Source: Mytilus trossulus (Eukaryota). From it: 64,000 nt of DNA. The stretch lies in contig NC_086373.1 in NCBI RefSeq assembly GCF_036588685.1, positions 25,978,001-26,042,000 on the forward strand. Direction: 5' to 3'. Numbering within the stretch: position 1 is the stretch's first letter; each line of letters begins with the position of its first letter. This document shows positions 23,457-44,753 of the stretch, one piece after another. The notes below the pieces were generated by a model, which worked only from the letters and a program-made list of their open reading frames with translations, was not told the origin of the DNA and did no database searches. The position numbers and the translations under genes are program-made.

Positions 23457-24128
23457 TCTAGCAAAGTATTCGGTAAAGTTGCAATTAAAAAAGTCCTCAA
23501 AACCTCTACTGAGTTTGAAGCTTTCCTCAGCCTCAAACACGAAAACATTGTCGAAGCCATTGAAATCATCGAAGCCGAAGAATTTGCCTTCGTTTTGATG
23601 GAATTCGCTGAATTCGGAGATGTTTTTGAATACATAATGAAAAACGGCCTCATGTCCGTTGAAGCCACCCTCTCTGTCTTCTCTCAAGTTGTCAAAGCAG
23701 TCGAATACTGCCACTCAAATGGAATCGCCCACAATGACATTAAATTAGAAAACGTCTTGTTATCTAATGGATGTGTCAAACTGGCTGATTTTGGATTTGC
23801 CAAATCAACCGTTATTGTTGCCGAATCTGAAGAATTTTGTGGAACCCTCCCATACGCTGCCCCCGAAGTCATTATGGGAATGGAACACAATACCATGAAA
23901 GCCGACATGTGGAGTATGGGAGTTATGCTTTACGTCATGCTCTTCGGAGCTTTCCCATTCTCCGATAGTGACGCAACCTCTATGGTCAAAGCTCAAATCT
24001 CAAACACCCTCTCTTTCCCCGAAAACACTAGCGACATCGTAAAATCCCTCGTCTCCTCCATGCTTGAACCCTCTGTTGAAAAACGTGCTGATGCCATCTC
24101 AGTCCGTCTTGCCTTGGGTCAGTTTTAA
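23457..24128 (+). pseudogene. TSSK-like kinase unit 1, 5'-truncated (no promoter, no ATG, first 22 codons missing)
   Basis: Homology starts at TCTAGC (codon 23); the ORF track start at 23454 is a TTG; carries E25K. Confidence 0.85.
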
Positions 24129-24355
24129 ATACCCAAGCATCCTTGAAATCGCAACAGGCTCCGTTATAGGATCTTGTTGTGATTTCAAGGATGTTTTTTT
24201 TTTGTCCATTCGATTGTTACGGTAAACCATGTATATATAACACTTGGGCATACCTTTATCCGATACAATATACGGTTACGGTAAACCTACGTGTTATCAA
24301 TCAATTTTACATTCTCATCTTCTTTGTTTCAACAAACTCATTCTATTTTCATTTT

Positions 24356-24361
24356 AATAAA
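24356..24361 (+). terminator. Polyadenylation signal AATAAA of the kinase unit (repeated in all 16 units)
   Basis: AATAAA ~228 nt after the stop codon, followed ~25 nt later by GT-rich TTGTTTGTTTTC. Confidence 0.7.
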
Positions 24362-24589
24362 CTTACTGTGACGTGAGTTAAGCATTGTTTGTTTTCTGAA
24401 AAACCTTGAATGGCTGCAGAGAAACAGAAAATTAGAACGCTCAAGTTACGACATAGTCTATTTATTAATTGTTATTCAAGTTTACCACTTGACCGCACAA
24501 TCCCGTAGCAAAGCAAGCTGTTTTCATAGGTTTGGGAAGAAAACAAGTTGACTCTAACAATCCTCTTACTTTCTTTGTATTGAGATTCG

Positions 24590-25110
24590 GGTTTGTAACC
24601 GATTCCATGTGGTTACGGTAAACAAGAATTTATGGTCAGTCCATAGTTATATATTTTGTTGAATCATGTTCTAATCCCAATAACTTAAATATATTAAAAG
24701 CACATAGAAAATGATTTCATCGGTTTACACTTAGCTTGCTGTGGTAAACATTGCATACGAGGATACGGTAAACTGAACTGTATAATAACTTGTTCGGTTA
24801 CGGTAAACCTTTATCGTATAAGTTTATGGTTACGGTAAACATGACAGTTAAAGGCAACACGGTAAACTTATAAGATAAATGCCCTTGTACAACCAATTAC
24901 TTTGTTTACCGTTTGCAAGAGTAGTTACCATTAATGAAAAGGGGAGATTGTTCAATAATGTACTGTTTCATTGTGTAAGAAAGCATTTATTTGAACTTTC
25001 CACCCTTCAGCATCAATCATTGGAACAGTCCGTAGCAGCCATATCTCTATATAAGGCGTGAATTTCAGTATTTTGATACCTTTATTACACTAAATCCACG
25101 CCAATTTAAA
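24590..25110 (+). promoter_or_regulatory. Kinase unit promoter: clustered (GGTT)ACGGTAAAC motifs and a TATA box (repeated before units 2-16)
   Basis: TATATAA at 25048-25054, 63 nt before the ATG; reverse CCAAT (ATTGG) ~25018; AAAATGG start context; multiple GTAAAC-core motifs at 24611-24912. Confidence 0.7.
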
Positions 25111-25848
25111 ATGGAACTTTTATTGAACAGTGGACTTTCAAACGTTGTAGCCCTAACTGAAGAAGTTTTCTCCGCCTCTAGCGAAGTATTCGGTAAAGTT
25201 GCAATTAAAAAAGTCCTCAAAACCTCTACTGAGTTTGAAGCTTTCCTCAGCCTCAAACACGAAAACATTGTCGAAGCCATTGAAATCATCGAAGCCGAAG
25301 AATTTGCCTTCGTTTTGATGGAATTCGCTGAATTCGGAGATGTTTTTGAATACATAATGAAAAACGGCCTCATGTCCGTTGAAGCCACCCTCTCTGTCTT
25401 CTCTCAAGTTGTCAAAGCAGTCGAATACTGCCACTCAAATGGAATCGCCCACAATGACATTAAATTAGAAAACGTCTTGTTATCTAATGGATGTGTCAAA
25501 CTGGCTGATTTTGGATTTGCCAAATCAACCGTTATTGTTGCCGAATCTGAAGAATTTTGTGGAACCCTCCCATACGCTGCCCCCGAAGTCATTATGGGAA
25601 TGGAACACAATACCATGAAAGCCGACATGTGGAGTATGGGAGTTATGCTTTACGTCATGCTCTTCGGAGCTTTCCCATTCTCCGATAGTGACGCAACCTC
25701 TATGGTCAAAGCTCAAATCTCAAACACCCTCTCTTTCCCCGAAAACACTAGCGACATCGTAAAATCCCTCGTCTCCTCCATGCTTGAACCCTCTGTTGAA
25801 AAACGTGCTGATGCCATCTCAGTCCGTCTTGCCTTGGGTCAGTTTTAA
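25111..25848 (+). CDS. Intronless TSSK-like (CAMK group) Ser/Thr kinase, 245 aa, unit 2
   Basis: VAIK, H.NIV, HNDIKLEN, DFG, FCGTLPYAAPE, DMWSMGVMLY and the subdomain XI Arg. The TSSK assignment is by eye (V.SA.SE, GD..EYI..NG, PF.DS...M...Q....FP). Confidence 0.9.
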   Translation: MELLLNSGLSNVVALTEEVFSASSEVFGKVAIKKVLKTSTEFEAFLSLKHENIVEAIEIIEAEEFAFVLMEFAEFGDVFEYIMKNGLMSVEATLSVFSQVVKAVEYCHSNGIAHNDIKLENVLLSNGCVKLADFGFAKSTVIVAESEEFCGTLPYAAPEVIMGMEHNTMKADMWSMGVMLYVMLFGAFPFSDSDATSMVKAQISNTLSFPENTSDIVKSLVSSMLEPSVEKRADAISVRLALGQF

Positions 25849-26821
25849 ATACCCAAGCATCCTTGAAATCGCAACAGGCTCCGTTATAGGATCTTGTTGT
25901 GATTTCAAGGATGTTTTTTTTTTGTCCATTCGATTGTTACGGTAAACCATGTATATAAAACACTTGGGCATACCTTTATCCGATACAATATACGGTTACG
26001 GTAAACCTAAGTGTTATCAATCAATTTTACATTCTCATCTTCTTTGTTTCAACAAACTCATTCTATTTTCATTTTAATAAACTTACTGTGACGTGAGTTA
26101 AGCATTGTTTGTTTTCTGAAAAACCTTGAATGGCTGCAGAGAAACAGAAAATTAGAACGCTCAAGTTACGACATAGTCTATTTATTAATTGTTATTCAAG
26201 TTTACCACTTGACCGCACAATCCCGTAGCAAAGCAAGCTGTTTTCATAGGTTTGGGAAGAAATGGAAAACAAGTTGACTCTAACAATCCTCTTACTTTCT
26301 TTGTATTGAGATTCGGGTTTGTAACCGATTCCATGTGGTTACGGTAAACAAGAATGTATGGTCAGTCCATAGTTATATATTTTGTTGAATCATGTTTAAA
26401 TATATTAAAAGCACATAGAAAATGATTTCATCGGTTTACACTTAGCTTGCTGTGGTAAACATTGCATACGAGGATACGGTAAACTGAACTGTATAATAAC
26501 TTGTTCGGTTACGGTAAACCTTTATCGTATAAGTTTATGGTTACGGTAAACATGACAGTTAAAGGCAACACGGTAAACTTATAAGATAAATGCCCTTGTA
26601 CAACCAATTACTTTGTTTACCGTTTGCAAGAGTAGTTACCATTAATGAAAAGGGGAGATTGTTCAATAATGTACTGTTTCATTGTGTAAGAAAGCATTTA
26701 TTTGAACTTTCCACCCTTCAGCATCAATCATTGGAACAGTCCGTAGCAGCCATATCTCTATATAAGGCGTGAATTTCAGTATTTTGATACCTTTATTACA
26801 CTAAATCCACGCCAATTTAAA

Positions 26822-27559
26822 ATGGAACTTTTATTGAACAGTGGACTTTCAAACGTTGTAGCCCTAACTGAAGAAGTTTTCTCCGCCTCTAGCGAAGTAT
26901 TCGGTAAAGTTGCAATTAAAAAAGTCCTCAAAACCTCTACTGAGTTTGAAGCTTTCCTCAGCCTCAAACACGAAAACATTGTCGAAGCCATTGAAATCAT
27001 CGAAGCCGAAGAATTTGCCTTCGTTTTGATGGAATTCGCTGAATTCGGAGATGTTTTTGAATACATAATGAAAAACGGCCTCATGTCCGTTGAAGCCACC
27101 CTCTCTGTCTTCTCTCAAGTTGTCAAAGCAGTCGAATACTGCCACTCAAATGGAATCGCCCACAATGACATTAAATTAGAAAACGTCTTGTTATCTAATG
27201 GATGTGTCAAACTGGCTGATTTTGGATTTGCCAAATCAACCGTTATTGTTGCCGAATCTGAAGAATTTTGTGGAACCCTCCCATACGCTGCCCCCGAAGT
27301 CATTATGGGAATGGAACACAATACCATGAAAGCCGACATGTGGAGTATGGGAGTTATGCTTTACGTCATGCTCTTCGGAGCTTTCCCATTCTCCGATAGT
27401 GACGCAACCTCTATGGTCAAAGCTCAAATCTCAAACACCCTCTCTTTCCCCGAAAACACTAGCGACATCGTAAAATCCCTCGTCTCCTCCATGCTTGAAC
27501 CCTCTGTTGAAAAACGTGCTGATGCCATCTCAGTCCGTCTTGCCTTGGGTCAGTTTTAA
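26822..27559 (+). CDS. TSSK-like kinase, unit 3
   Basis: Protein identical to unit 2. Confidence 0.9.
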   Translation: MELLLNSGLSNVVALTEEVFSASSEVFGKVAIKKVLKTSTEFEAFLSLKHENIVEAIEIIEAEEFAFVLMEFAEFGDVFEYIMKNGLMSVEATLSVFSQVVKAVEYCHSNGIAHNDIKLENVLLSNGCVKLADFGFAKSTVIVAESEEFCGTLPYAAPEVIMGMEHNTMKADMWSMGVMLYVMLFGAFPFSDSDATSMVKAQISNTLSFPENTSDIVKSLVSSMLEPSVEKRADAISVRLALGQF

Positions 27560-28532
27560 ATACCCAAGCATCCTTGAAATCGCAACAGGCTCCGTTATAG
27601 GATCTTGTTGTGATTTCAAGGATGGTTTTTTTTTGTCCATTCGATTGTTACGGTAAACCATGTATATAAAACACTTGGGCATACCTTTATCCGATACAAT
27701 ATACGGTTACGGTAAACCTAAGTGTTATCAATCAATTTTACATTCTCATCTTCTTTGTTTCAACAAACTCATTCTATTTTCATTTTAATAAACTTACTGT
27801 GACGTGAGTTAAGCATTGTTTGTTTTCTGAAAAACCTTGAATGGCTGCAGAGAAACAGAAAATTAGAACGCTCAAGTTACGACATAGTCTATTTATTAAT
27901 TGTTATTCAAGTTTACCACTTGACCGCACAATCCCGTAGCAAAGCAAGCTGTTTTCATAGGTTTGGGAAGAAATGGAAAACAAGTTGACTCTAACAATCC
28001 TCTTACTTTCTTTGTATTGAGATTCGGGTTTGTAACCGATTCCATGTGGTTACGGTAAACAAGAATGTATGGTCAGTCCATAGTTATATATTTTGTTGAA
28101 TCATGTTTAAATATATTAAAAGCACATAGAAAATGATTTCATCGGTTTACACTTAGCTTGCTGTGGTAAACATTGCATACGAGGATACGGTAAACTGAAC
28201 TGTATAATAACTTGTTCGGTTACGGTAAACCTTTATCGTATAAGTTTATGGTTACGGTAAACATGACAGTTAAAGGCAACACGGTAAACTTATAAGATAA
28301 ATGCCCTTGTACAACCAATTACTTTGTTTACCGTTTGCAAGAGTAGTTACCATTAATGAAAAGGGGAGATTGTTCAATAATGTACTGTTTCATTGTGTAA
28401 GAAAGCATTTATTTGAACTTTCCACCCTTCAGCATCAATCATTGGAACAGTCCGTAGCAGCCATATCTCTATATAAGGCGTGAATTTCAGTATTTTGATA
28501 CCTTTATTACACTAAATCCACGCCAATTTAAA

Positions 28533-29270
28533 ATGGAACTTTTATTGAACAGTGGACTTTCAAACGTTGTAGCCCTAACTGAAGAAGTTTTCTCCGCCTC
28601 TAGCGAAGTATTCGGTAAAGTTGCAATTAAAAAAGTCCTCAAAACCTCTACTGAGTTTGAAGCTTTCCTCAGCCTCAAACACGAAAACATTGTCGAAGCC
28701 ATTGAAATCATCGAAGCCGAAGAATTTGCCTTCGTTTTGATGGAATTCGCTGAATTCGGAGATGTTTTTGAATACATAATGAAAAACGGCCTCATGTCCG
28801 TTGAAGCCACCCTCTCTGTCTTCTCTCAAGTTGTCAAAGCAGTCGAATACTGCCACTCAAATGGAATCGCCCACAATGACATTAAATTAGAAAACGTCTT
28901 GTTATCTAATGGATGTGTCAAACTGGCTGATTTTGGATTTGCCAAATCAACCGTTATTGTTGCCGAATCTGAAGAATTTTGTGGAACCCTCCCATACGCT
29001 GCCCCCGAAGTCATTATGGGAATGGAACACAATACCATGAAAGCCGACATGTGGAGTATGGGAGTTATGCTTTACGTCATGCTCTTCGGAGCTTTCCCAT
29101 TCTCCGATAGTGACGCAACCTCTATGGTCAAAGCTCAAATCTCAAACACCCTCTCTTTCCCCGAAAACACTAGCGACATCGTAAAATCCCTCGTCTCCTC
29201 CATGCTTGAACCCTCTGTTGAAAAACGTGCTGATGCCATCTCAGTCCGTCTTGCCTTGGGTCAGTTTTAA
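28533..29270 (+). CDS. TSSK-like kinase, unit 4
   Basis: Protein identical to unit 2. Confidence 0.9.
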   Translation: MELLLNSGLSNVVALTEEVFSASSEVFGKVAIKKVLKTSTEFEAFLSLKHENIVEAIEIIEAEEFAFVLMEFAEFGDVFEYIMKNGLMSVEATLSVFSQVVKAVEYCHSNGIAHNDIKLENVLLSNGCVKLADFGFAKSTVIVAESEEFCGTLPYAAPEVIMGMEHNTMKADMWSMGVMLYVMLFGAFPFSDSDATSMVKAQISNTLSFPENTSDIVKSLVSSMLEPSVEKRADAISVRLALGQF

Positions 29271-30258
29271 ATACCCAAGCATCCTTGAAATCGCAACAGG
29301 CTCCGTTTTAGGATCTTGTTGTGATTTCAAGGATGTTTTTTTTTTGTCCATTCGATTGTTACGGTAAACCATGTATATATAACACTTGGGCATACCTTTA
29401 TCCGATACAATATACGGTTACGGTAAACCTAAGTGTTATCAATCAATTTTACATTCTCATCTTCTTTGTTTCAACAAACTCATTCTATTTTCATTTTAAT
29501 AAACTTACTGTGACGTGAGTTAAGCATTGTTTGTTTTCTGAAAAACCTTGAATGGCTGCAGAGAAACAGAAAATTAGAACGCTAAAGTTACGACATAGTC
29601 TATTTATTAATTGTTATTCAAGTTTACCACTTGACCGCACAATCCCGTAGCAAAGCAAGCTGTTTTCATAGGTTTGGGAAGAAATGGAAAACAAGTTGAC
29701 TCTAACAATCCTCTTACTTTCTTTGTATTGAGATTCGGGTTTGTAACCGATTCCATGTGGTTACGGTAAACAAGAATTTATGGTCAGTCCATAGTTATAT
29801 ATTTTGTTGAATCATGTTCTAATCCCAATAACTTAAATATATTAAAAGCACATAGAAAATGATTTCATCGGTTTACACTTAGCTTGCTGTGGTAAACATT
29901 GCATACGAGGATACGGTAAACTGAACTGTATAATAACTTGTTCGGTTACGGTAAACCTTTATCGTATAAGTTTATGGTTACGGTAAACATGACAGTTAAA
30001 GGCAACACGGTAAACTTATAAGATAAATGCCCTTGTACAACCAATTACTTTGTTTACCGTTTGCAAGAGTAGTTACCATTAATGAAAAGGGGAGATTGTT
30101 CAATAATGTACTGTTTCATTGTGTAAGAAAGCATTTATTTGAACTTTCCACCCTTCAGCATCAATCATTGGAACAGTCCGTAGCAGCCATATCTCTATAT
30201 AAGGCGTGAATTTCAGTATTTTGATACCTTTATTACACTAAATCCACGCCAATTTAAA

Positions 30259-30996
30259 ATGGAACTTTTAATGAACAGTGGACTTTCAAACGTTGTAGCC
30301 CTAACTGAAGAAGTTTTCTCCGCCTCTAGCGAAGTATTCGGTAAAGTTGCAATTAAAAAAGTCCTCAAAACCTCTACTGAGTTTGAAGCTTTCCTCAGCC
30401 TCAAACACGAAAACATTGTCGAAGCCATTGAAATCATCGAAGCCGAAGAATTTGCCTTCGTTTTGATGGAATTCGCTGAATTCGGAGATGTTTTTGAATA
30501 CATAATGAAAAACGGCCTCATGTCCGTTGAAGCCACCCTCTTTGTCTTCTCTCAAGTTGTCAAAGCAGTCGAATACTGCCACTCAAATGGAATCGCCCAC
30601 AATGACATTAAATTAGAAAACGTCTTGTTATCTAATGGATGTGTCAAACTGGCTGATTTTGGATTTGCCAAATCAACCGTTATTGTTGCCGAATCTGAAG
30701 AATTTTGTGGAACCCTCCCATACGCTGCCCCCGAAGTCATTATGGGAATGGAACACAATACCATGAAAGCCGACATGTGGAGTATGGGAGTTATGCTTTA
30801 CGTCATGCTCTTCGGAGCTTTCCCATTCTCCGATAGTGACGCAACCTCTATGGTCAAAGCTCAAATCTCAAACACCCTCTCTTTCCCCGAAAACACTAGC
30901 GACATCGTAAAATCCCTCGTCTCCTCCATGCTTGAACCCTCTGTTGAAAAACGTGCTGATGCCATCTCAGTCCGTCTTGCCTTGGGTCAGTTTTAA
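30259..30996 (+). CDS. TSSK-like kinase, unit 5 (L5M, S95F)
   Basis: Intact ORF with two missense changes. Confidence 0.9.
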   Translation: MELLMNSGLSNVVALTEEVFSASSEVFGKVAIKKVLKTSTEFEAFLSLKHENIVEAIEIIEAEEFAFVLMEFAEFGDVFEYIMKNGLMSVEATLFVFSQVVKAVEYCHSNGIAHNDIKLENVLLSNGCVKLADFGFAKSTVIVAESEEFCGTLPYAAPEVIMGMEHNTMKADMWSMGVMLYVMLFGAFPFSDSDATSMVKAQISNTLSFPENTSDIVKSLVSSMLEPSVEKRADAISVRLALGQF

Positions 30997-31984
30997 ATAC
31001 CCAAGCATCCTTGAAATCGCAACAGGCTCCGTTATAGGATCTTGTTGTGATTTCAAGGATGTTTTTTTTTTGTCCATTCGATTGTTACGGTAAACCATGT
31101 ATATATAACACTTGGGCATACCTTTATCCGATACAATATACGGTTACGGTAAACCTACGTGTTATCAATCAATTTTACATTCTCATCTTCTTTGTTTCAA
31201 CAAACTCATTCTATTTTCATTTTAATAAACTTACTGTGACGTGAGTTAAGCATTGTTTGTTTTCTGAAAAACCTTGAATGGCTGCAGAGAAACAGAAAAT
31301 TAGAACGCTCAAGTTACGACATAGTCTATTTATTAATTGTTATTCAAGTTTACCACTTGACCGCACAATCCCGTAGCAAAGCAAGCTGTTTTCATAGGTT
31401 TGGGAAGAAATGGAAAACAAGTTGACTCTAACAATCCTCTTACTTTCTTTGTATTGAGATTCGGGTTTGTAACCGATTCCATGTGGTTACGGTAAACAAG
31501 AATTTATGGTCAGTCCATAGTTATATATTTTGTTGAATCATGTTCTAATCCCAATAACTTAAATATATTAAAAGCACATAGAAAATGATTTCATCGGTTT
31601 ACACTTAGCTTGCTGTGGTAAACATTGCATACGAGGATACGGTAAACTGAACTGTATAATAACTTGTTCGGTTACGGTAAACCTTTATCGTATAAGTTTA
31701 TGGTTACGGTAAACATGACAGTTAAAGGCAACACGGTAAACTTATAAGATAAATGCCCTTGTACAACCAATTACTTTGTTTACCGTTTGCAAGAGTAGTT
31801 ACCATTAATGAAAAGGGGAGATTGTTCAATAATGTACTGTTTCATTGTGTAAGAAAGCATTTATTTGAACTTTCCACCCTTCAGCATCAATCATTGGAAC
31901 AGTCCGTAGCAGCCATATCTCTATATAAGGCGTGAATTTCAGTATTTTGATACCTTTATTACACTAAATCCACGCCAATTTAAA

Positions 31985-32722
31985 ATGGAACTTTTATTGA
32001 ACAGTGGACTTTCAAACGTTGTAGCCCTAACTGAAGAAGTTTTCTCCGCCTCTAGCGAAGTATTCGGTAAAGTTGCAATTAAAAAAGTCCTCAAAACCTC
32101 TACTGAGTTTGAAGCTTTCCTCAGCCTCAAACACGAAAACATTGTCGAAGCCATTGAAATCATCGAAGCCGAAGAATTTGCCTTCGTTTTGATGGAATTC
32201 GCTGAATTCGGAGATGTTTTTGAATACATAATGAAAAACGGCCTCATGTCCGTTGAAGCCACCCTCTCTGTCTTCTCTCAAGTTGTCAAAGCAGTCGAAT
32301 ACCGCCACTCAAATGGAATCGCCCACAATGACATTAAATTAGAAAACGTCTTGTTATCTAATGGATGTGTCAAACTGGCTGATTTTGGATTTGCCAAATC
32401 AACCGTTATTGTTGCCGAATCTGAAGAATTTTGTGGAACCCTCCCATACGCTGCCCCCGAAGTCATTATGGGAATGGAACACAATACCATGAAAGCCGAC
32501 ATGTGGAGTATGGGAGTTATGCTTTACGTCATGCTCTTCGGAGCTTTCCCATTCTCCGATAGTGACGCAACCTCTATGGTCAAAGCTCAAATCTCAAACA
32601 CCCTCTCTTTCCCCGAAAACACTAGCGACATCGTAAAATCCCTCGTCTCCTCCATGCTTGAACCCTCTGTTGAAAAACGTGCTGATGCCATCTCAGTCCG
32701 TCTTGCCTTGGGTCAGTTTTAA
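31985..32722 (+). CDS. TSSK-like kinase, unit 6 (C107R)
   Basis: Intact ORF; YCH becomes YRH. Confidence 0.88.
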   Translation: MELLLNSGLSNVVALTEEVFSASSEVFGKVAIKKVLKTSTEFEAFLSLKHENIVEAIEIIEAEEFAFVLMEFAEFGDVFEYIMKNGLMSVEATLSVFSQVVKAVEYRHSNGIAHNDIKLENVLLSNGCVKLADFGFAKSTVIVAESEEFCGTLPYAAPEVIMGMEHNTMKADMWSMGVMLYVMLFGAFPFSDSDATSMVKAQISNTLSFPENTSDIVKSLVSSMLEPSVEKRADAISVRLALGQF

Positions 32723-33711
32723 ATACCCAAGCATCCTTGAAATCGCAACAGGCTCCGTTATAGGATCTTGTTGTGATTTCAAGGATGTTTTTTTTTTTGT
32801 CCATTCGATTGTTACGGTAAACCATGTATATATAACACTTGGGCATACCTTTATCCGATACAATATACGGTTACGGTAAACCTACGTGTTATCAATCAAT
32901 TTTACATTCTCATCTTCTTTGTTTCAACAAACTCATTCTATTTTCATTTTAATAAACTTACTGTGACGTGAGTTAAGCATTGTTTGTTTTCTGAAAAACC
33001 TTGAATGGCTGCAGAGAAACAGAAAATTAGAACGCTCAAGTTACGACATAGTCTATTTATTAATTGTTATTCAAGTTTACCACTTGACCGCACAATCCCG
33101 TAGCAAAGCAAGCTGTTTTCATAGGTTTGGGAAGAAATGGAAAACAAGTTGACTCTAACAATCCTCTTACTTTCTTTGTATTGAGATTCGGGTTTGTAAC
33201 CGATTCCATGTGGTTACGGTAAACAAGAATTTATGGTCAGTCCATAGTTATATATTTTGTTGAATCATGTTCTAATCCCAATAACTTAAATATATTAAAA
33301 GCACATAGAAAATGATTTCATCGGTTTACACTTAGCTTGCTGTGGTAAACATTGCATACGAGGATACGGTAAACTGAACTGTATAATAACTTGTTCGGTT
33401 ACGGTAAACCTTTATCGTATAAGTTTATGGTTACGGTAAACATGACAGTTAAAGGCAACACGGTAAACTTATAAGATAAATGCCCTTGTACAACCAATTA
33501 CTTTGTTTACCGTTTGCAAGAGTAGTTACCATTAATGAAAAGGGGAGATTGTTCAATAATGTACTGTTTCATTGTGTAAGAAAGCATTTATTTGAACTTT
33601 CCACCCTTCAGCATCAATCATTGGAACAGTCCGTAGCAGCCATATCTCTATATAAGGCGTGAATTTCAGTATTTTGATACCTTTATTACACTAAATCCAC
33701 GCCAATTTAAA

Positions 33712-34449
33712 ATGGAACTTTTATTGAACAGTGGACTTTCAAACGTTGTAGCCCTAACTGAAGAAGTTTTCTCCGCCTCTAGCGAAGTATTCGGTAAAGT
33801 TGCAATTAAAAAAGTCCTCAAAACCTCTACTGAGTTTGAAGCTTTCCTCAGCCTCAAACACGAAAACATTGTCGAAGCCATTGAAATCATCGAAGCCGAA
33901 GAATTTGCCTTCGTTTTGATGGAATTCGCTGAATTCGGAGATGTTTTTGAATACATAATGAAAAACGGCCTCATGTCCGTTGAAGCCACCCTCTCTGTCT
34001 TCTCTCAAGTTGTCAAAGCAGTCGAATACTGCCACTCAAATGGAATCGCCCACAATGACATTAAATTAGAAAACGTCTTGTTATCTAATGGATGTGTCAA
34101 ACTGGCTGATTTTGGATTTGCCAAATCAACCGTTATTGTTGCCGAATCTGAAGAATTTTGTGGAACCCTCCCATACGCTGCCCCCGAAGTCATTATGGGA
34201 ATGGAACACAATACCATGAAAGCCGACATGTGGAGTATGGGAGTTATGCTTTACGTCATGCTCTTCGGAGCTTTCCCATTCTCCGATAGTGACGCAACCT
34301 CTATGGTCAAAGCTCAAATCTCAAACACCCTCTCTTTCCCCGAAAACACTAGCGACATCGTAAAATCCCTCGTCTCCTCCATGCTTGAACCCTCTGTTGA
34401 AAAACGTGCTGATGCCATCTCAGTCCGTCTTGCCTTGGGTCAGTTTTAA
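33712..34449 (+). CDS. TSSK-like kinase, unit 7
   Basis: Protein identical to unit 2. Confidence 0.9.
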   Translation: MELLLNSGLSNVVALTEEVFSASSEVFGKVAIKKVLKTSTEFEAFLSLKHENIVEAIEIIEAEEFAFVLMEFAEFGDVFEYIMKNGLMSVEATLSVFSQVVKAVEYCHSNGIAHNDIKLENVLLSNGCVKLADFGFAKSTVIVAESEEFCGTLPYAAPEVIMGMEHNTMKADMWSMGVMLYVMLFGAFPFSDSDATSMVKAQISNTLSFPENTSDIVKSLVSSMLEPSVEKRADAISVRLALGQF

Positions 34450-35424
34450 ATACCCAAGCATCCTTGAAATCGCAACAGGCTCCGTTATAGGATCTTGTTG
34501 TGATTTCAAGGATGTTTTTTTTTTGTCCATTCGATTGTTACGGTAAACCATGTATATATAACACTTGGGCATACCTTTATCCGATACAATATACGGTTAC
34601 GGTAAACCTAAGTGTTATCAATCAATTTTACATTCTCATCTTCTTTGTTTCAACAAACTCATTCTATTTTCATTTTAATAAACTTACTGTGACGTGAGTT
34701 AAGCATTGTTTGTTTTCTGAAAAACCTTGAATGGCTGCAGAGAAACAGAAAATTAGAACGCTCAAGTTACGACATAGTCTATTTATTAATTGTTATTCAA
34801 GTTTACCACTTGACCGCGCAATCCCGTAGCAAAGCAAGCTGTTTTCATAGGTTTGGGAAGAAATGGAAAACAAGTTGACTCTAACAATCCTCTTACTTTC
34901 TTTGTATTGAGATTCGGGTTTGTAACCGATTCCATGTGGTTACGGTAAACAAGAATTTATGGTCAGTCCATAGTTATATATTTTGTTGAATCATGTTCTA
35001 ATCCCAATAACTTAAATATATTAAAAGCACATAGAAAATGATTTCATCGGTTTACACTTAGCTTGCTGTGGTAAACATTGCATACGAGGATACGGTAAAC
35101 TGAACTGTATAATAACTTGTTCGGTTACGGTAAACCTTTATCGTATAAGTTTATGGTTACGGTAAACATGACACGGTAAACTTATAAGATAAATGCCCTT
35201 GTACAACCAATTACTTTGTTTACCGTTTGCAAGAGTAGTTACCATTAATGAAAAGGGGAGATTGTTCAATAATGTACTGTTTCATTGTGTAAGAAAGCAT
35301 TTATTTGAACTTTCCACCCTTCAGCATCAATCATTGGAACAGTCCGTAGCAGCCATATCTCTATATAAGGCGTGAATTTCAGTATTTTGATACCTTTATT
35401 ACACTAAATCCACGCCAATTTAAA

Positions 35425-36162
35425 ATGGAACTTTTATTGAACAGTGGACTTTCAAACGTTGTAGCCCTAACTGAAGAAGTTTTCTCCGCCTCTAGCGAAG
35501 TATTCGGTAAAGTTGCAATTAAAAAAGTCCTCAAAACCTCTACTGAGTTTGAAGCTTTCCTCAGCCTCAAACACGAAAACATTGTCGAAGCCATTGAAAT
35601 CATCGAAGCCGAAGAATTTGCCTTCGTTTTGATGGAATTCGCTGAATTCGGAGATGTTTTTGAATACATAATGAAAAACGGCCTCATGTCCGTTGAAGCC
35701 ACCCTCTCTGTCTTCTCTCAAGTTGTCAAAGCAGTCGAATACTGCCACTCAAATGGAATCGCCCACAATGACATTAAATTAGAAAACGTCTTGTTATCTA
35801 ATGGATGTGTCAAACTGGCTGATTTTGGATTTGCCAAATCAACCGTTATTGTTGCCGAATCTGAAGAATTTTGTGGAACCCTCCCATACGCTGCCCCCGA
35901 AGTCATTATGGGAATGGAACACAATACCATGAAAGCCGACATGTGGAGTATGGGAGTTATGCTTTACGTCATGCTCTTCGGAGCTTTCCCATTCTCCGAT
36001 AGTGACGCAACCTCTATGGTCAAAGCTCAAATCTCAAACACCCTCTCTTTCCCCGAAAACACTAGCGACATCGTAAAATCCCTCGTCTCCTCCATGCTTG
36101 AACCCTCTGTTGAAAAACGTGCTGATGCCATCTCAGTCCGTCTTGCATTGGGTCAGTTTTAA
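35425..36162 (+). CDS. TSSK-like kinase, unit 8
   Basis: Protein identical; synonymous GCC>GCA at Ala241. Confidence 0.9.
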   Translation: MELLLNSGLSNVVALTEEVFSASSEVFGKVAIKKVLKTSTEFEAFLSLKHENIVEAIEIIEAEEFAFVLMEFAEFGDVFEYIMKNGLMSVEATLSVFSQVVKAVEYCHSNGIAHNDIKLENVLLSNGCVKLADFGFAKSTVIVAESEEFCGTLPYAAPEVIMGMEHNTMKADMWSMGVMLYVMLFGAFPFSDSDATSMVKAQISNTLSFPENTSDIVKSLVSSMLEPSVEKRADAISVRLALGQF

Positions 36163-37149
36163 ATACCCAAGCATCCTTGAAATCGCAACAGGCTCCGTTA
36201 TAGGATCTTGTTGTGATTTCAAGGATGTTTTTTTTTGTCCATTCGATTGTTACGGTAAACCATGTATATATAACACTTGGGCATACCTTTATCCGATACA
36301 ATATACGGTTACGGTAAACCTAAGTGTTATCAATCAATTTTACATTCTCATCTTCTTTGTTTCAACAAACTCATTCTATTTTCATTTTAATAAACTTACT
36401 GTGACGTGAGTTAAGCATTGTTTGTTTTCTGAAAAACCTTGAATGGCTGCAGAGAAACAGAAAATTAGAACGCTCAAGTTACGACATAGTCTATTTATTA
36501 ATTGTTATTCAAGTTTACCACTTGACCGCACAATCCCGTAGCAAAGCAAGCTGTTTTCATAGGTTTGGGAAGAAATGGAAAACAAGTTGACTCTAACAAT
36601 CCTCTTACTTTCTTTGTATTGAGATTCGGGTTTGTAACCGATTCCATGTGGTTACGGTAAACAAGAATTTATGGTCAGTCCATAGTTATATATTTTGTTG
36701 AATCATGTTCTAATCCCAATAACTTAAATATATTAAAAGCACATAGAAAATGATTTCATCGGTTTACACTTAGCTTGCTGTGGTAAACATTGCATACGAG
36801 GATACGGTAAACTGAACTGTATAATAACTTGTTCGGTTACGGTAAACCTTTATCGTATAAGTTTATGGTTACGGTAAACATGACAGTTAAAGGCAACACG
36901 GTAAACTTATAAGATAAATGCCCTTGTACAACCAATTACTTTGTTTACCGTTTGCAAGAGTAGTTACCATTAATGAAAAGGGGAGATTGTTCAATAATGT
37001 ACTGTTTCATTGTGTAAGAAAGCATTTATTTGAACTTTCCACCCTTCAGCATCAATCATTGGAACAGTCCGTAGCAGCCATATCTCTATATAAGGCGTGA
37101 ATTTCAGTATTTTGATACCTTTATTACACTAAATCCACGCCAATTTAAA

Positions 37150-37887
37150 ATGGAACTTTTATTGAACAGTGGACTTTCAAACGTTGTAGCCCTAACTGAA
37201 GAAGTTTTCTCCGCCTCTAGCGAAGTATTCGGTAAAGTTGCAATTAAAAAAGTCCTCAAAACCTCTACTGAGTTTGAAGCTTTCCTCAGCCTCAAACACG
37301 AAAACATTGTCGAAGCCATTGAAATCATCGAAGCCGAAGAATTTGCCTTCGTTTTGATGGAATTCGCTGAATTCGGAGATGTTTTTGAATACATAATGAA
37401 AAACGGCCTCATGTCCGTTGAAGCCACCCTCTCTGTCTTCTCTCAAGTTGTCAAAGCAGTCGAATACTGCCACTCAAATGGAATCGCCCACAATGACATT
37501 AAATTAGAAAACGTCTTGTTATCTAATGGATGTGTCAAACTGGCTGATTTTGGATTTGCCAAATCAACCGTTATTGTTGCCGAATCTGAAGAATTTTGTG
37601 GAACCCTCCCATACGCTGCCCCCGAAGTCATTATGGGAATGGAACACAATACCATGAAAGCCGACATGTGGAGTATGGGAGTTATGCTTTACGTCATGCT
37701 CTTCGGAGCTTTCCCATTCTCCGATAGTGACGCAACCTCTATGGTCAAAGCTCAAATCTCAAACACCCTCTCTTTCCCCGAAAACACTAGCGACATCGTA
37801 AAATCCCTCGTCTCCTCCATGCTTGAACCCTCTGTTGAAAAACGTGCTGATGCCATCTCAGTCCGTCTTGCCTTGGGTCAGTTTTAA
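37150..37887 (+). CDS. TSSK-like kinase, unit 9
   Basis: Protein identical to unit 2. Confidence 0.9.
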   Translation: MELLLNSGLSNVVALTEEVFSASSEVFGKVAIKKVLKTSTEFEAFLSLKHENIVEAIEIIEAEEFAFVLMEFAEFGDVFEYIMKNGLMSVEATLSVFSQVVKAVEYCHSNGIAHNDIKLENVLLSNGCVKLADFGFAKSTVIVAESEEFCGTLPYAAPEVIMGMEHNTMKADMWSMGVMLYVMLFGAFPFSDSDATSMVKAQISNTLSFPENTSDIVKSLVSSMLEPSVEKRADAISVRLALGQF

Positions 37888-38875
37888 ATACCCAAGCATC
37901 CTTGAAATCGCAACAGGCTCCGTTATAGGATCTTGTTGTGATTTCAAGGATGTTTTTTTTTTGTCCATTCGATTGTTACGGTAAACCATGTATATATAAC
38001 ACTTGGGCATACCTTTATCCGATACAATATACGGTTACGGTAAACCTACGTGTTATCAATCAATTTTACATTCTCATCTTCTTTGTTTCAACAAACTCAT
38101 TCTATTTTCATTTTAATAAACTTACTGTGACGTGAGTTAAGCATTGTTTGTTTTCTGAAAAACCTTGAATGGCTGCAGAGAAACAGAAAATTAGAACGCT
38201 CAAGTTACGACATAGTCTATTTATTAATTGTTATTCAAGTTTACCACTTGACCGCACAATCCCGTAGCAAAGCAAGCTGTTTTCATAGGTTTGGGAAGAA
38301 ATGGAAAACAAGTTGACTCTAACAATCCACTTACTTTCTTTGTATTGAGATTCGGGTTTGTAACCGATTCCATGTGGTTACGGTAAACAAGAATTTATGG
38401 TCAGTCCATAGTTATATATTTTGTTGAATCATGTTCTAATCCCAATAACTTAAATATATTAAAAGCACATAGAAAATGATTTCATCGGTTTACACTTAGC
38501 TTGCTGTGGTAAACATTGCATACGAGGATACGGTAAACTGAACTGTATAATAACTTGTTCGGTTACGGTAAACCTTTATCGTATAAGTTTATGGTTACGG
38601 TAAACATGACAGTTAAAGGCAACACGGTAAACTTATAAGATAAATGCCCTTGTACAACCAATTACTTTGTTTACCGTTTGCAAGAGTAGTTACCAATAAT
38701 GAAAAGGGGAGATTGTTCAATAATGTACTGTTTCATTGTGTAAGAAAGCATTTATTTGAACTTTCCACCCTTCAGCATCAATCATTGGAACAGTCCGTAG
38801 CAGCCATATCTCTATATAAGGCGTGAATTTCAGTATTTTGATACCTTTATTACACTAAATCCACGCCAATTTAAA

Positions 38876-39600
38876 ATGGAACTTTTATTGAACAGTGGAC
38901 TTTCAAACGTTGTAGCCCTAACTGAAGAAGTTTTCTCCGCCTCTAGCGAAGTATTCGGTAAAGTTGCAATTAAAAAAGTCCTCAAAACCTCTACTGAGTT
39001 TGAAGCTTTCCTCAGCCTCAAACACGAAAACATTGTCGAAGCCATTGAAATCATCGAAGCCGAAGAATTTGCCTTCGTTTTGATGGAATTCGCTGAATTC
39101 GGAGATGTTTTTGAATACATAATGAAAAACGGCCTCATGTCCGTTGAAGCCACCCTCTCTGTGTCAAAGCAGTCGAATACTGCCACTCAAATGGAATCGC
39201 CCACAATGACATTAAATTAGAAAACGTCTTGTTATCTAATGGATGTGTCAAACTGGCTGATTTTGGATTTGCCAAATCAACCGTTATTGTTGCCGAATCT
39301 GAAGAATTTTGTGGAACCCTCCCATACGCTGCCCCCGAAGTCATTATGGGAATGGAACACAATACCATGAAAGCCGACATGTGGAGTATGGGAGTTATGC
39401 TTTACGTCATGCTCTTCGGAGCTTTCCCATTCTCCGATAGTGACGCAACCTCTATGGTCAAAGCTCAAATCTCAAACACCCTCTCTTTCCCCGAAAACAC
39501 TAGCGACATCGTAAAATCCCTCGTCTCCTCCATGCTTGAACCCTCTGTTGAAAAACGTGCTGATGCCATCTCAGTCCGTCTTGCCTTGGGTCAGTTTTAA
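38876..39600 (+). pseudogene. TSSK-like kinase unit 10, frameshifted
   Basis: 13-bp deletion (CTTCTCTCAAGTT) at ~39162; span is 725 bp versus 738 bp. Confidence 0.9.
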
Positions 39601-40576
39601 ATACCCAAGCATCCTTGAAATCGCAACAGGCTCCGTTATAGGATCTTGTTGTGATTTCAAGGATGTTTTTTTTTTTGTCCATTCGATTGTTACGGTAAAC
39701 CATGTATATATAACACTTGGGCATACCTTTATCCGATACAATATACGGTTACGGTAAACCTACGTGTTATCAATCAATTTTACATTCTCATCTTCTTTGT
39801 TTCAACAAACTCATTCTATTTTCATTTTAATAAACTTACTGTGACGTGAGTTAAGCATTGTTTGTTTTCTGAAAAACCTTGAATGGCTGCAGAGAAACAG
39901 AAAATTAGAACGCTCAAGTATTTATTAATTGTTATTCAAGTTTACCACTTGACCGCACAATCCCGTAGCAAAGCAAGCTGTTTTCATAGGTTTGGGAAGA
40001 AATGGAAAACAAGTTGACTCTAACAATCCTCTTACTTTCTTTGTATTGAGATTCGGGTTTGTAACCGATTCCATGTGGTTACGGTAAACAAGAATTTATG
40101 GTCAGTCCATAGTTATATATTTTGTTGAATCATGTTCTAATCCCAATAACTTAAATATATTAAAAGCACATAGAAAATGATTTCATCGGTTTACACTTAG
40201 CTTGCTGTGGTAAACATTGCATACTAGGATACGGTAAACTGAACTGTATAATAACTTGTTCGGTTACGGTAAACCTTTATCGTATAAGTTTATGGTTACG
40301 GTAAACATGACAGTTAAAGGCAACACGGTAAACTTATAAGATAAATGCCCTTGTACAACCAATTACTTTGTTTACCGTTTGCAAGAGTAGTTACCATTAA
40401 TGAAAAGGGGAGATTGTTCAATAATGTACTGTTTCATTGTGTAAGAAAGCATTTATTTGAACTTTCCACCCTTCAGCATCAATCATTGGAACAGTCCGTA
40501 GCAGCCATATCTCTATATAAGGCGTGAATTTCAGTATTTTGATACCTTTATTACACTAAATCCACGCCAATTTAAA

Positions 40577-41314
40577 ATGGAACTTTTATTGAACAGTGGA
40601 CTTTCAAACGTTGTAGCCCTAACTGAAGAAGTTTTCTCCGCCTCTAGCGAAGTATTCGGTAAAGTTGCAATTAAAAAAGTCCTCAAAACCTCTACTGAGT
40701 TTGAAGCTTTCCTCAGCCTCAAACACGAAAACATTGTCGAAGCCATTGAAATCATCGAAGCCGAAGAATTTGCCTTCGTTTTGATGGAATTCGCTGAATT
40801 CGGAGATGTTTTTGAATACATAATGAAAAACGGCCTCATGTCCGTTGAAGCCACCCTCTCTGTCTTCTCTCAAGTTGTCAAAGCAGTCGAATACTGCCAC
40901 TCAAATGGAATCGCCCACAATGACATTAAATTAGAAAACGTCTTGTTATCTAATGGATGTGTCAAACTGGCTGATTTTGGATTTGCCAAATCAACCGTTA
41001 TTGTTGCCGAATCTGAAGAATTTTGTGGAACCCTCCCATACGCTGCCCCCGAAGTCATTATGGGAATGGAACACAATACCATGAAAGCCGACATGTGGAG
41101 TATGGGAGTTATGCTTTACGTCATGCTCTTCGGAGCTTTCCCATTCTCCGATAGTGACGCAACCTCTATGGTCAAAGCTCAAATCTCAAACACCCTCTCT
41201 TTCCCCGAAAACACTAGCGACATCGTAAAATCCCTCGTCTCCTCCATGCTTGAACCCTCTGTTGAAAAACGTGCTGATGCCATCTCAGTCCGTCTTGCCT
41301 TGGGTCAGTTTTAA
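40577..41314 (+). CDS. TSSK-like kinase, unit 11
   Basis: Protein identical to unit 2. Confidence 0.9.
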   Translation: MELLLNSGLSNVVALTEEVFSASSEVFGKVAIKKVLKTSTEFEAFLSLKHENIVEAIEIIEAEEFAFVLMEFAEFGDVFEYIMKNGLMSVEATLSVFSQVVKAVEYCHSNGIAHNDIKLENVLLSNGCVKLADFGFAKSTVIVAESEEFCGTLPYAAPEVIMGMEHNTMKADMWSMGVMLYVMLFGAFPFSDSDATSMVKAQISNTLSFPENTSDIVKSLVSSMLEPSVEKRADAISVRLALGQF

Positions 41315-42302
41315 ATACCCAAGCATCCTTGAAATCGCAACAGGCTCCGTTATAGGATCTTGTTGTGATTTCAAGGATGTTTTTTTTTTGTCCATTCGAT
41401 TGTTACGGTAAACCATGTATATATAACACTTGGGCATACCTTTATCCGATACAATATACGGTTACGGTAAACCTACGTGTTATCAATCAATTTTACATTC
41501 TCATCTTCTTTGTTTCAACAAACTCATTCTATTTTCATTTTAATAAACTTACTGTGACGTGAGTTAAGCATTGTTTGTTTTCTGAAAAACCTTGAATGGC
41601 TGCAGAGAAACAGAAAATTAGAACGCTCAAGTTACGACATAGTCTATTTATTAATTGTTATTCAAGTTTACCACTTGACCGCACAATCCCGTAGCAAAGC
41701 AAGCTGTTTTCATAGGTTTGGGAAGAAATGGAAAACAAGTTGACTCTAACAATCCTCTTACTTTCTTTGTATTGAGATTCGGGTTTGTAACCGATTCCAT
41801 GTGGTTACGGTAAACAAGAATTTATGGTCAGTCCATAGTTATATATTTTGTTGAATCATGTTCTAATCCCAATAACTTAAATATATTAAAAGCACATAGA
41901 AAATGATTTCATCGGTTTACACTTAGCTTGCTGTGGTAAACATTGCATACTAGGATACGGTAAACTGAACTGTATAATAACTTGTTCGGTTACGGTAAAC
42001 CTTTATCGTATAAGTTTATGGTTACGGTAAACATGACAGTTAAAGGCAACACGGTAAACTTATAAGATAAATGCCCTTGTACAACCAATTACTTTGTTTA
42101 CCGTTTGCAAGAGTAGTTACCATTAATGAAAAGGGGAGATTGTTCAATAATGTACTGTTTCATTGTGTAAGAAAGCATTTATTTGAACTTTCCACCCTTC
42201 AGCATCAATCATTGGAACAGTCCGTAGCAGCCATATCTCTATATAAGGCGTGAATTTCAGTATTTTGATACCTTTATTACACTAAATCCACGCCAATTTA
42301 AA

Positions 42303-43040
42303 ATGGAACTTTTATTGAACAGTGGACTTTCAAACGTTGTAGCCCTAACTGAAGAAGTTTTCTCCGCCTCTAGCGAAGTATTCGGTAAAGTTGCAATTAA
42401 AAAAGTCCTCAAAACCTCTACTGAGTTTGAAGCTTTCCTCAGCCTCAAACACGAAAACATTGTCGAAGCCATTGAAATCATCGAAGCCGAAGAATTTGCC
42501 TTCGTTTTGATGGAATTCGCTGAATTCGGAGATGTTTTTGAATACATAATGAAAAACGGCCTCATGTCCGTTGAAGCCACCCTCTCTGTCTTCTCTCAAG
42601 TTGTCAAAGCAGTCGAATACTGCCACTCAAATGGAATCGCCCACAATGACATTAAATTAGAAAACGTCTTGTTATCTAATGGATGTGTCAAACTGGCTGA
42701 TTTTGGATTTGCCAAATCAACCGTTATTGTTGCCGAATCTGAAGAATTTTGTGGAACCCTCCCATACGCTGCCCCCGAAGTCATTATGGGAATGGAACAC
42801 AATACCATGAAAGCCGACATGTGGAGTATGGGAGTTATGCTTTACGTCATGCTCTTCGGAGCTTTCCCATTCTCCGATAGTGACGCAACCTCTATGGTCA
42901 AAGCTCAAATCTCAAACACCCTCTCTTTCCCCGAAAACACTAGCGACATCGTAAAATCCCTCGTCTCCTCCATGCTTGAACCCTCTGTTGAAAAACGTGC
43001 TGATGCCATCTCAGTCCGTCTTGCCTTGGGTCAGTTTTAA
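42303..43040 (+). CDS. TSSK-like kinase, unit 12
   Basis: Protein identical to unit 2. Confidence 0.9.
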   Translation: MELLLNSGLSNVVALTEEVFSASSEVFGKVAIKKVLKTSTEFEAFLSLKHENIVEAIEIIEAEEFAFVLMEFAEFGDVFEYIMKNGLMSVEATLSVFSQVVKAVEYCHSNGIAHNDIKLENVLLSNGCVKLADFGFAKSTVIVAESEEFCGTLPYAAPEVIMGMEHNTMKADMWSMGVMLYVMLFGAFPFSDSDATSMVKAQISNTLSFPENTSDIVKSLVSSMLEPSVEKRADAISVRLALGQF

Positions 43041-44015
43041 ATACCCAAGCATCCTTGAAATCGCAACAGGCTCCGTTATAGGATCTTGTTGTGATTTCAA
43101 GGATGTTTTTTTTTTGTCCATTCGATTGTTACGGTAAACCATGTATATATAACACTTGGGCATACCTTTATCCGATACAATATACGGTTACGGTAAACCT
43201 ACGTGTTATCAATCAATTTTACATTCTCATCTTCTTTGTTTCAACAAACTCATTCTATTTTCATTTTAATAAACTTACTGTGACGTGAGTTAAGCATTGT
43301 TTGTTTTCTGAAAAACCTTGAATGGCTGCAGAGAAACAGAAAATTAGAACGCTCAAGTATTTATTAATTGTTATTCAAGTTTACCACTTGACCGCACAAT
43401 CCCGTAGCAAAGCAAGCTGTTTTCATAGGTTTGGGAAGAAATGGAAAACAAGTTGACTCTAACAATCCTCTTACTTTCTTTGTATTGAGATTCGGGTTTG
43501 TAACCGATTCCATGTGGTTACGGTAAACAAGAATTTATGGTCAGTCCATAGTTATATATTTTGTTGAATCATGTTCTAATCCCAATAACTTAAATATATT
43601 AAAAGCACATAGAAAATGATTTCATCGGTTTACACTTAGCTTGCTGTGGTAAACATTGCATACGAGGATACGGTAAACTGAACTGTATAATAACTTGTTC
43701 GGTTACGGTAAACCTTTATCGTATAAGTTTATGGTTACGGTAAACATGACAGTTAAAGGCAACACGGTAAACTTATAAGATAAATGCCCTTGTACAACCA
43801 ATTACTTTGTTTACCGTTTGCAAGAGTAGTTACCATTAATGAAAAGGGGAGATTGTTCAATAATGTACTGTTTCATTGTGTAAGAAAGCATTTATTTGAA
43901 CTTTCCACCCTTCAGCATCAATCATTGGAACAGTCCGTAGCAGCCATATCTCTATATAAGGCGTGAATTTCAGTATTTTGATACCTTTATTACACTAAAT
44001 CCACGCCAATTTAAA

Positions 44016-44753
44016 ATGGAACTTTTATTGAACAGTGGACTTTCAAACGTTGTAGCCCTAACTGAAGAAGTTTTCTCCGCCTCTAGCGAAGTATTCGGTA
44101 AAGTTGCAATTAAAAAAGTCCTCAAAACCTCTACTGAGTTTGAAGCTTTCCTCAGCCTCAAACACGAAAACATTGTCGAAGCCATTGAAATCATCGAAGC
44201 CGAAGAATTTGCCTTCGTTTTGATGGAATTCGCTGAATTCGGAGATGTTTTTGAATACATAATGAAAAACGGCCTCATGTCCGTTGAAGCCACCCTCTCT
44301 GTCTTCTCTCAAGTTGTCAAAGCAGTCGAATACTGCCACTCAAATGGAATCGCCCACAATGACATTAAATTAGAAAACGTCTTGTTATCTAATGGATGTG
44401 TCAAACTGGCTGATTTTGGATTTGCCAAATCAACCGTTATTGTTGCCGAATCTGAAGAATTTTGTGGAACCCTCCCATACGCTGCCCCCGAAGTCATTAT
44501 GGGAATGGAACACAATACCATGAAAGCCGACATGTGGAGTATGGGAGTTATGCTTTACGTCATGCTCTTCGGAGCTTTCCCATTCTCCGATAGTGACGCA
44601 ACCTCTATGGTCAAAGCTCAAATCTCAAACACCCTCTCTTTCCCCGAAAACACTAGCGACATCGTAAAATCCCTCGTCTCCTCCATGCTTGAACCCTCTG
44701 TTGAAAAACGTGCTGATGCCATCTCAGTCCGTCTTGCCTTGGGTCAGTTTTAA
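44016..44753 (+). CDS. TSSK-like kinase, unit 13
   Basis: Protein identical to unit 2. Confidence 0.9.
   Translation: MELLLNSGLSNVVALTEEVFSASSEVFGKVAIKKVLKTSTEFEAFLSLKHENIVEAIEIIEAEEFAFVLMEFAEFGDVFEYIMKNGLMSVEATLSVFSQVVKAVEYCHSNGIAHNDIKLENVLLSNGCVKLADFGFAKSTVIVAESEEFCGTLPYAAPEVIMGMEHNTMKADMWSMGVMLYVMLFGAFPFSDSDATSMVKAQISNTLSFPENTSDIVKSLVSSMLEPSVEKRADAISVRLALGQF

Follow-up and report, generated by a model that had tools for sequence, protein, structure and literature searches.

Homotypic clusters of transcription-factor sites at promoters are a general concept in gene regulation, and they are one of the described systems against which the locus reported here can be set. A second is termination against a bound protein. 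Passages of PMC12366685 describe RNA polymerase I pausing 15 bp ahead of a roadblock site, within a T-rich tract, and being released by a hairpin, most rapidly when it has stopped 8 bp past that hairpin. For RNA polymerase II, roadblocking by Reb1 5-25 bp upstream is described in a section of PMC5052057 and termination at T-tracts in short units in a section of PMC11610936. As to the sequence word itself, an excerpt of PMC6198943 gives GGTTAA as the GT1 box and GGTAAA as the GT3 box of plant trihelix factors, and the hammerhead repeats of metazoans are assigned to retrozymes and Penelope-like elements in part of PMC7229834.

Here we compare with these systems a spacer in a tandem kinase array of the mussel Mytilus trossulus. 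The window that we analysed is a stretch of 64,000 nucleotides (GCF_036588685.1, contig NC_086373.1, positions 25,978,001 to 26,042,000, forward strand), and all positions below are counted within it. The array occupies 23457..50467 on the plus strand and consists of 16 tandem units of 1.70-1.73 kb, of which every full one holds a single intronless 245-codon kinase ORF as its sole gene. Unit 1 is truncated at its 5′ end and the last spacer is truncated as well, both ends being cut mid-unit. In runs X15 and X17, DNA-type contigs loop back on themselves by 1720 bases, which indicates that the tandem form exists outside this assembly and is not an artefact. Together with two paralogous arrays elsewhere in the genome (C3 with 29 hairpin-bearing units and C4 with 11; protein identity 89-92%), the array in the window (C1) makes up a family of three homogenised arrays on three chromosomes, to which three copies on one other 17-kb contig are added. 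In the literature listings that were searched, we found no description of the array or of the motif. The features of unit 1, and of the gene that follows it, are listed below.

23457..24128, plus strand: 5′-truncated kinase ORF of unit 1 (codons 20-245)
24129-25110: spacer of unit 1, the spacer under study
24135..24196, plus strand: long hairpin immediately behind the stop codon (-41.1 kcal/mol, z -9.6); C3 and C4 keep the stem, with a shorter loop
24194..24203, plus strand: T10 run (8-11 T across 56 units)
24216..24227, plus strand: motif copy 1, GTTACGGTAAAC; core 15 bp past the T-run; orthologous in C3 and C4
24275..24286, plus strand: motif copy 2, GTTACGGTAAAC; orthologous in C3 and C4; 59, 33 and 63 bp from copy 1 in C1, C3 and C4
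24480..24488, minus strand: variant GTGGTAAAC, without counterpart in C3 or C4
24612..24623, plus strand: motif copy, GTTACGGTAAAC; aligned counterpart intact in C4, with one change in C3
24722..24730, minus strand: weak GTGTAAAC without the GG core, a doubtful member; not conserved
24741..24749, plus strand: variant GTGGTAAAC; C4 has GTGGTTAAC
24765..24773, plus strand: proximal copy, ACGGTAAAC
24797..24808, plus strand: proximal copy, GTTACGGTAAAC; C3 and C4 keep the core, with the GGTT prefix changed
24829..24840, plus strand: proximal copy, GTTACGGTAAAC; full 13-mer kept in C3 and C4
24859..24867, plus strand: proximal copy, ACGGTAAAC; kept across a 16-bp indel
24904..24912, minus strand: reverse copy, end of the cluster; C3 and C4 have ACGGTTAAC
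25048..25054, plus strand: TATA box (TATATAA), identical in C1, C3 and C4, 63 bp before the ATG
25111..25848, plus strand: Ser/Thr kinase of unit 2 (245 aa, intronless), related to TSSK; RNA-labelled contigs span its ORF

Several observations belong to the setting of the array. Degenerate, scrambled pieces of the kinase unit flank it at 23270-23456 and 51790-52230, and one frameshifted and one premature-stop copy (38876-39600 and 45729-46466) lie within an array that is otherwise homogenised. At 174-2064 (minus strand) and 3060-5062 (plus strand), LINE-like endonuclease ORFs, together with exons of an MBT-repeat-like gene, were judged by eye from translations. Within one spacer of the C4 array (L035:3944-10000 and L036:1-856, G000:C4), several kb of other sequence are inserted.

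An initial annotation of this DNA had pointed to about a dozen dispersed copies of one motif in the unit-1 spacer. Its positions for GTTACGGTAAAC (five copies), ACGGTAAAC (24765 and, noted as about 24858, 24859) and GTGGTAAAC (24741) are confirmed, and so are the minus-strand copies at 24480 and 24904; the third minus-strand copy, at 24722, is doubtful, being the weak GTGTAAAC that lacks the GG core. The spacer holds eight exact ACGGTAAAC and ten GGTAAAC cores. In 500 dinucleotide shuffles the commonest 9-mer of any kind occurred at most four times, and none of the 500 reached eight. Allowing one mismatch, the window contains 131 matches to ACGGTAAAC against 11.3 expected, which fall into 122 exact and one one-mismatch match inside the array and eight one-mismatch matches, none exact, outside it; in 247,853 bases of non-array DNA, we counted one ACGGTAAAC and eight RYGGTWAAC. 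The density, which the initial annotation had not seen elsewhere in the window, recurs in each of the array's 15 full spacers. RYGGTWAAC is the consensus, the next base being free (C, T and A about equally), and GGTTAAC takes the place of GGTAAAC at -208 in C3 and C4, at -376 in C4 and in one loose end of run X5. Six copies form a proximal group 370-200 bp before the ATG, in both orientations and at irregular spacing.

Comparison between arrays shows that the copies are kept while the DNA between them changes. In a three-way alignment of C1 against C3 and C4, 85 of 90 motif columns are identical, as against 520/771 and 515/783 of the aligned non-motif columns (about 67%). Where the spacers can be aligned continuously (-400 to -200), the counts are 51/52 motif versus 86/128 other columns (p = 1.5e-6) and 50/52 versus 89/130 (p = 2.9e-5), all of this coming from two independent spacer lineages (C1 versus C3/C4) and an alignment partly anchored on the motif. 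At nine orthologous sites 79 of 81 bases are unchanged, versus 81 of 101 fourfold codon sites (about 80%; p = 3.6e-4), sites that are not neutral in this codon-biased gene. Turnover is seen as well, with copies at -931, -591 and -510 in C3/C4 that have no counterpart in C1 and a C1-specific copy at -631. Variation within the C1 array is uninformative (one of 11 variable columns falls inside the motif, which makes up 9% of bases). The core CpG is kept although the genome is CpG-poor, and CpG o/e is 0.98 in the spacer versus 0.41-0.43 in the flanks. Judged on this footprint, the motif cluster is real and maintained by selection.

How the cluster arose can be read in part from its flanks. Around different copies the bases come close to random (0.28-0.33 vs 0.27-0.28), so that the cluster is not a fresh minisatellite, except that some neighbouring copies share a few more bases on the 5′ side (mean identity 0.44-0.52 at -5 to -1). 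Since the flanks are near random save for these five bases, the cluster was probably grown by local duplication, its cores then being held by selection. The same shared bases could be taken to mean that the copies are neutral remnants left by old slippage duplications or by a TE fragment, which homogenisation spread through the array. We consider this very improbable, as the cores are kept between near-random flanks in paralogous spacers that have diverged by about a third, the core CpG is retained, and the spacer, used as a DNA query (40 of 58 candidates scored), retrieved kinase arrays only, C3 and C4 aligning in the proximal 200 bp alone at about 70%; the footprint itself already largely refutes such a relic.

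An origin from a common TE or satellite fragment, which by the initial annotation would have refuted its reading, was also rejected. The spacer aligns to kinase arrays only, it aligns to no dispersed repeat beyond the motif, and against 53 motif-bearing or control loci it gave nothing longer than motif-length matches. Of the 166 genomic occurrences of the 13-mer GGTTACGGTAAAC, 145 lie in the three arrays, and the 21 outside compare with 26 for the reversed control; reversed controls lack the CpG and overstate chance. Six of seven single 13-mer matches checked outside the arrays sit in the integrase-region ORF of one retrotransposon, a coding coincidence.

Genome pattern searches gave no second protein-coding gene with such a cluster among the matches listed. 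Pairs 10-40 bp apart returned minisatellites and repeats among the 100 matches listed of 255, and triple GGTAAAC returned minisatellites among 100 of 487; for the T-run plus motif there were 246 matches versus 336 for the control, with no second gene among the 100 listed. Pairs 35-49 bp apart gave 16 matches and no second gene, and the convergent pair gave none versus 16 for its control. Histone repeats lacked the motif in six loci and in two stretches of 10 kb. Runs X19-X24 hold none of the words, which is uninformative either way. One match on C23 (L296-L298, G000:C23:500001-522000) is a 60-bp satellite of more than 20 kb with ACGGTAAAC in many units. The 25 triple-motif matches in viral contigs are coding, tandem repeats or palindromic phage sites and unrelated; five of these contigs (L236, L237, L244, L249 and L258, from the viral collection) carry three or four spaced palindromic GTTTACACGGTAAAC, iteron- or operator-like and unrelated to the mussel array.

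Two mobile sequences carry the core or related words. The first is a dispersed tandem repeat of 0.8-1.2 kb that carries clusters of the same core and is unrelated to the kinase unit (40 of 136 candidates scored), the longest stretch in common being an exact 14-bp word. It was reached by searching for the motif itself, which calls for caution in reading the presence of cores. In 25 of 26 TATA matches (20 distinct upstream stretches), 3-16 GGTWAAC cores lie no more than 340 bp ahead of the TATA box, carried by 22-bp and 16-bp subrepeats directly before it, and in 23 of 26 a minimal type I hammerhead core follows 40 bp past the TATA box, as found by descriptor search (the MFE fold did not give a hammerhead). 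The same descriptor found no hammerhead in the kinase units, and Rfam gave no match at gathering score in the window and six element loci; four weak matches are chance. Among 138 units from 19 stretches, whose variants are inherited and not independent, the W and the base following the core are the most variable positions of the 16-bp subrepeat, the same two that vary in the kinase sites; the element's 16-mer also holds MYB-type words. The repeat loci (L313:600-3100, L182-L186, L303-L314) have direct and inverted copies and no long ORF, and the repeat is likely a non-autonomous Penelope-like or retrozyme family. The second sequence is a hAT-like MITE (L288:1490-2552, L282, L284, L289) with short terminal inverted repeats, TAGTGTTG termini, an apparent 8-bp duplication and subterminal AACCGGTT arrays. 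Its ends are filled with CGGTTAAC words, which weakens the coincidence with the hammerhead element.

Which factor could read the word was approached through site types. The consensus strings used were RYAAAYA for Forkhead, GTNRCC-N0-3-RGYAAC for the RFX X-box and YAACNG for MYB. Against these strings the three factor types suggested in the initial annotation fit poorly and were rejected. The full Forkhead consensus occurs in 4/10, 3/11 and 4/13 sites (C1, C3, C4) and GGTTAAC is tolerated; the RFX X-box has no full match in the C1, C3 and C4 spacers; and YAACNG lies outside the core, with six, four and five scattered matches, the CGGTTA extension at -311 being GAGCTA in C3 and C4. The iteron-like site offered there as an alternative is unlikely, because spacing is irregular and differs between the paralogues (24, 35, 32 and 27 in C1 versus 26, 37, 31 and 43 in C3/C4); strands are mixed as well, and the unit encodes a kinase only. 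All counted cores hold GGTAAA or GGTTAA, interchanging at the same position. Plant trihelix sites are alike in that the cores contain the GT1 and GT3 boxes and that PF13837 (Myb/SANT-like) domains are many in the genome, with 89 matches, three of 20 such loci having one RYGGTWAAC. They differ in that this is an animal genome, that 6-mers are weak evidence and that the conserved mussel ACG prefix and final C exceed the GT box. A trihelix-type factor is, on this resemblance, a lead and not an identification.

The abundance of PF13837 matches, the related words in the hammerhead repeat and the subterminal ends of the MITE, and the spread of the family over three homogenised arrays and the 17-kb contig would also suit sites that bind a transposon-derived or chromatin protein, serving upkeep of the array (pairing, replication block, amplification or relocation) and not transcription. 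We regard this as quite improbable, given that the kinase unit shows no terminal inverted repeats or element boundaries and the array ends mid-unit, that spacing is irregular and not kept, that copies are concentrated upstream of the TATA box, and that histone and rDNA arrays lack the motif.

The gene downstream belongs to a peculiar kinase family. Homologues carry the names TSSK or TSSK3-like in four Mytilus species, and further unnamed relatives are 67-82% identical. The family is sister to TSSK rows (97/99) against SIK, AMPK and SAD, on a long branch (1.22), in a tree that did not include MARK or NIM1 rows; the best PDB matches are MARKs, and the AlphaFold model has a mean pLDDT of 58.8. 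Eighteen aligned family sequences lack GxGxxG and the HRD arginine, with HND, HCD, HSD or HGD in place of HRD and an acidic residue ahead of the activation-loop FCG, and most keep the lysine, aspartate, DFG and APE motifs. For the kinase at 25111-25848, the loss of the glycine-rich loop and HRD arginine and the acidic activation loop are conserved in relatives at 67-92% identity. Two canonical TSSK-like loci of the same genome have no RYGGTWAAC within 9-10 kb. A metagenome scan with the kinase alignment kept 80 loci, all generic kinases 29-39% identical without an orthologous spacer, and viral contigs yielded no relative of the kinase. The kinase gene is not mentioned in the main-text passages searched of PMC12750733, 10.64898/2026.04.16.718233 and PMC12550047; expression tables in their supplements may bear on tissue.

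Eight sequencing runs were compared for transcript cover. Runs X7, X10 and X13, whose RNA label is a guess, cover 25105-25881 only and nothing in the spacer, X7 at a depth of about 750-1600; low-depth cover in X1, X2 and X5 extends over spacer as well as ORF, and X15 and X17 behave like DNA. With the footprint against paralogous arrays, the non-orthologous extra copies and the lack of a TE or satellite origin, the homotypic enhancer of the initial annotation is supported as a homotypic cis-regulatory cluster, without the factors proposed for it. We consider it reasonably likely, from sequence, that the roughly ten RYGGTWAAC copies are a homotypic binding-site cluster for one activator that drives the TATA promoter of the downstream kinase copy. 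A sequence-specific protein, perhaps a Myb/SANT (trihelix-like) protein, would bind the copies and activate, giving a narrow and strong burst of expression, probably in the germ line or early embryo. As the repeats lie head to tail, the downstream copies of one unit would serve the next unit as distal sites. Separately, and with less confidence, copy 1 may stall polymerase over the hairpin and T-run.

This last step has a geometry of its own. A hairpin, a run of 8-11 T, exactly 15 bp and then copy 1 follow one another in 16/16, 29/29 and 11/11 units of C1, C3 and C4 (56/56), even though the 15-mer itself differs between C1 and C3/C4; the kept gap is weak evidence with two lineages, and the alignment often shows short stretches free of indels. 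Near the stop the arrays share no AATAAA, the nearest lying at +228 in C1 and at +609/+611 in C3/C4, and therefore the claim that the 3′ UTR holds two copies is unsupported. In unit 2 the RNA-labelled contigs (the label again a guess) stop by 25881, short of the hairpin, the T-run being at 25914 and the first copy at 25939, a weak hint given that contigs cannot show RNA ends. From these observations it could be argued that the main job of the sites is termination or insulation, a reading compatible with the activator one. A protein at copy 1 (and 2) would stall polymerase over the T-run and the hairpin would free the RNA, as with Reb1, Nsi1 and TTF1 for RNA polymerase I, and the upstream copies would be promoter-proximal terminator-like sites that keep read-through out of the next gene. 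Most copies being oriented as the gene is consistent with it, as are the precedents for Pol I, Reb1 and short-unit Pol II as far as described in PMC12366685, PMC5052057 and PMC11610936. We nevertheless hold it to be unlikely as the main function. Six of the ten copies are gathered near the promoter, in the hammerhead element the cores stand before a TATA box, a coding RNA without polyadenylation needs other means of stability, and the mussel rDNA spacer speaks against a shared terminator word.

That 8.7-kb spacer has no CGGTWAAC and 23 Sal-box-like words, indicating that the kinase motif is not the mussel TTF1 site; RYGGTWAAC is absent from the spacers of all four rDNA stretches. The 23 words, [AG]GGTCGACCA, lie on one strand (L225:5235-10000 and L226:1-3967, G000:C13) and match 10 of 11 bases of the mouse/human Sal box as given in a passage of PMC11358750. 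The same spacer has many TTACCCG/CGGGTAA (the yeast Reb1 word), and Sal-box-like and Reb1 words both stand upstream of 18S and not after 28S. It also contains a telomere-like (CCCTAA)n tract (L226:235-585) and 107-bp subrepeats (L225:5799-10000), each with CCTCGGTAAA and then an A/T run, which have CGGTAAA in common with the kinase motif (39 copies).

Returning to the activator reading, a wider version may be tentatively put forward, which we think rather unlikely as a whole. One mussel Myb/trihelix-type protein would open the TATA promoter and also act as a Pol II roadblock, the mRNA would end in rDNA style without a poly(A) signal, and the hammerhead retroelement would have borrowed the same factor. 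The cluster offers a compact cis-element with a strong footprint in a mollusc, a group with few defined elements of this kind, and it points to a possible single factor common to a mobile element and an amplified family of kinases. Should copy 1 be a roadblock, rDNA-style termination would occur naturally at a protein-coding gene of an animal; if it is not, this is an ordinary enhancer cluster with an unfamiliar word.

Set against known systems, the array kinase appears to group with TSSKs in a tree with SIK, AMPK and SAD rows and is, like them, intronless and made of a kinase domain only, but it sits on a long separate branch at 34-41% identity, is tandemly amplified and lacks the GxGxxG loop. 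The likeness to retrozymes and Penelope-like elements concerns the motif-bearing dispersed element, a tandem repeat with a minimal type I hammerhead, and not the kinase units. The Pol I terminators, as described in parts of PMC12366685, PMC11358750 and PMC5052057, place hairpin, T-run and first site in the same order and at the same distance, and in the tandem array of the mussel, too, repeated sites lie both past the gene and ahead of the promoter that follows. However, the mussel unit is a protein-coding gene with a TATA box, its word differs from both the Sal box and TTACCCG and is absent from the rDNA spacer of the same genome, and the hairpin abuts the T-run instead of lying 20 nt before the end. 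From homotypic clusters of transcription-factor sites the locus differs in a word that fits no animal factor tested and seems almost confined to one tandem gene family plus a mobile repeat, and in having copies just beyond the end of the gene; it resembles them in its many copies of one word, present in both orientations at flexible spacing, conserved with turnover and placed near a TATA box.
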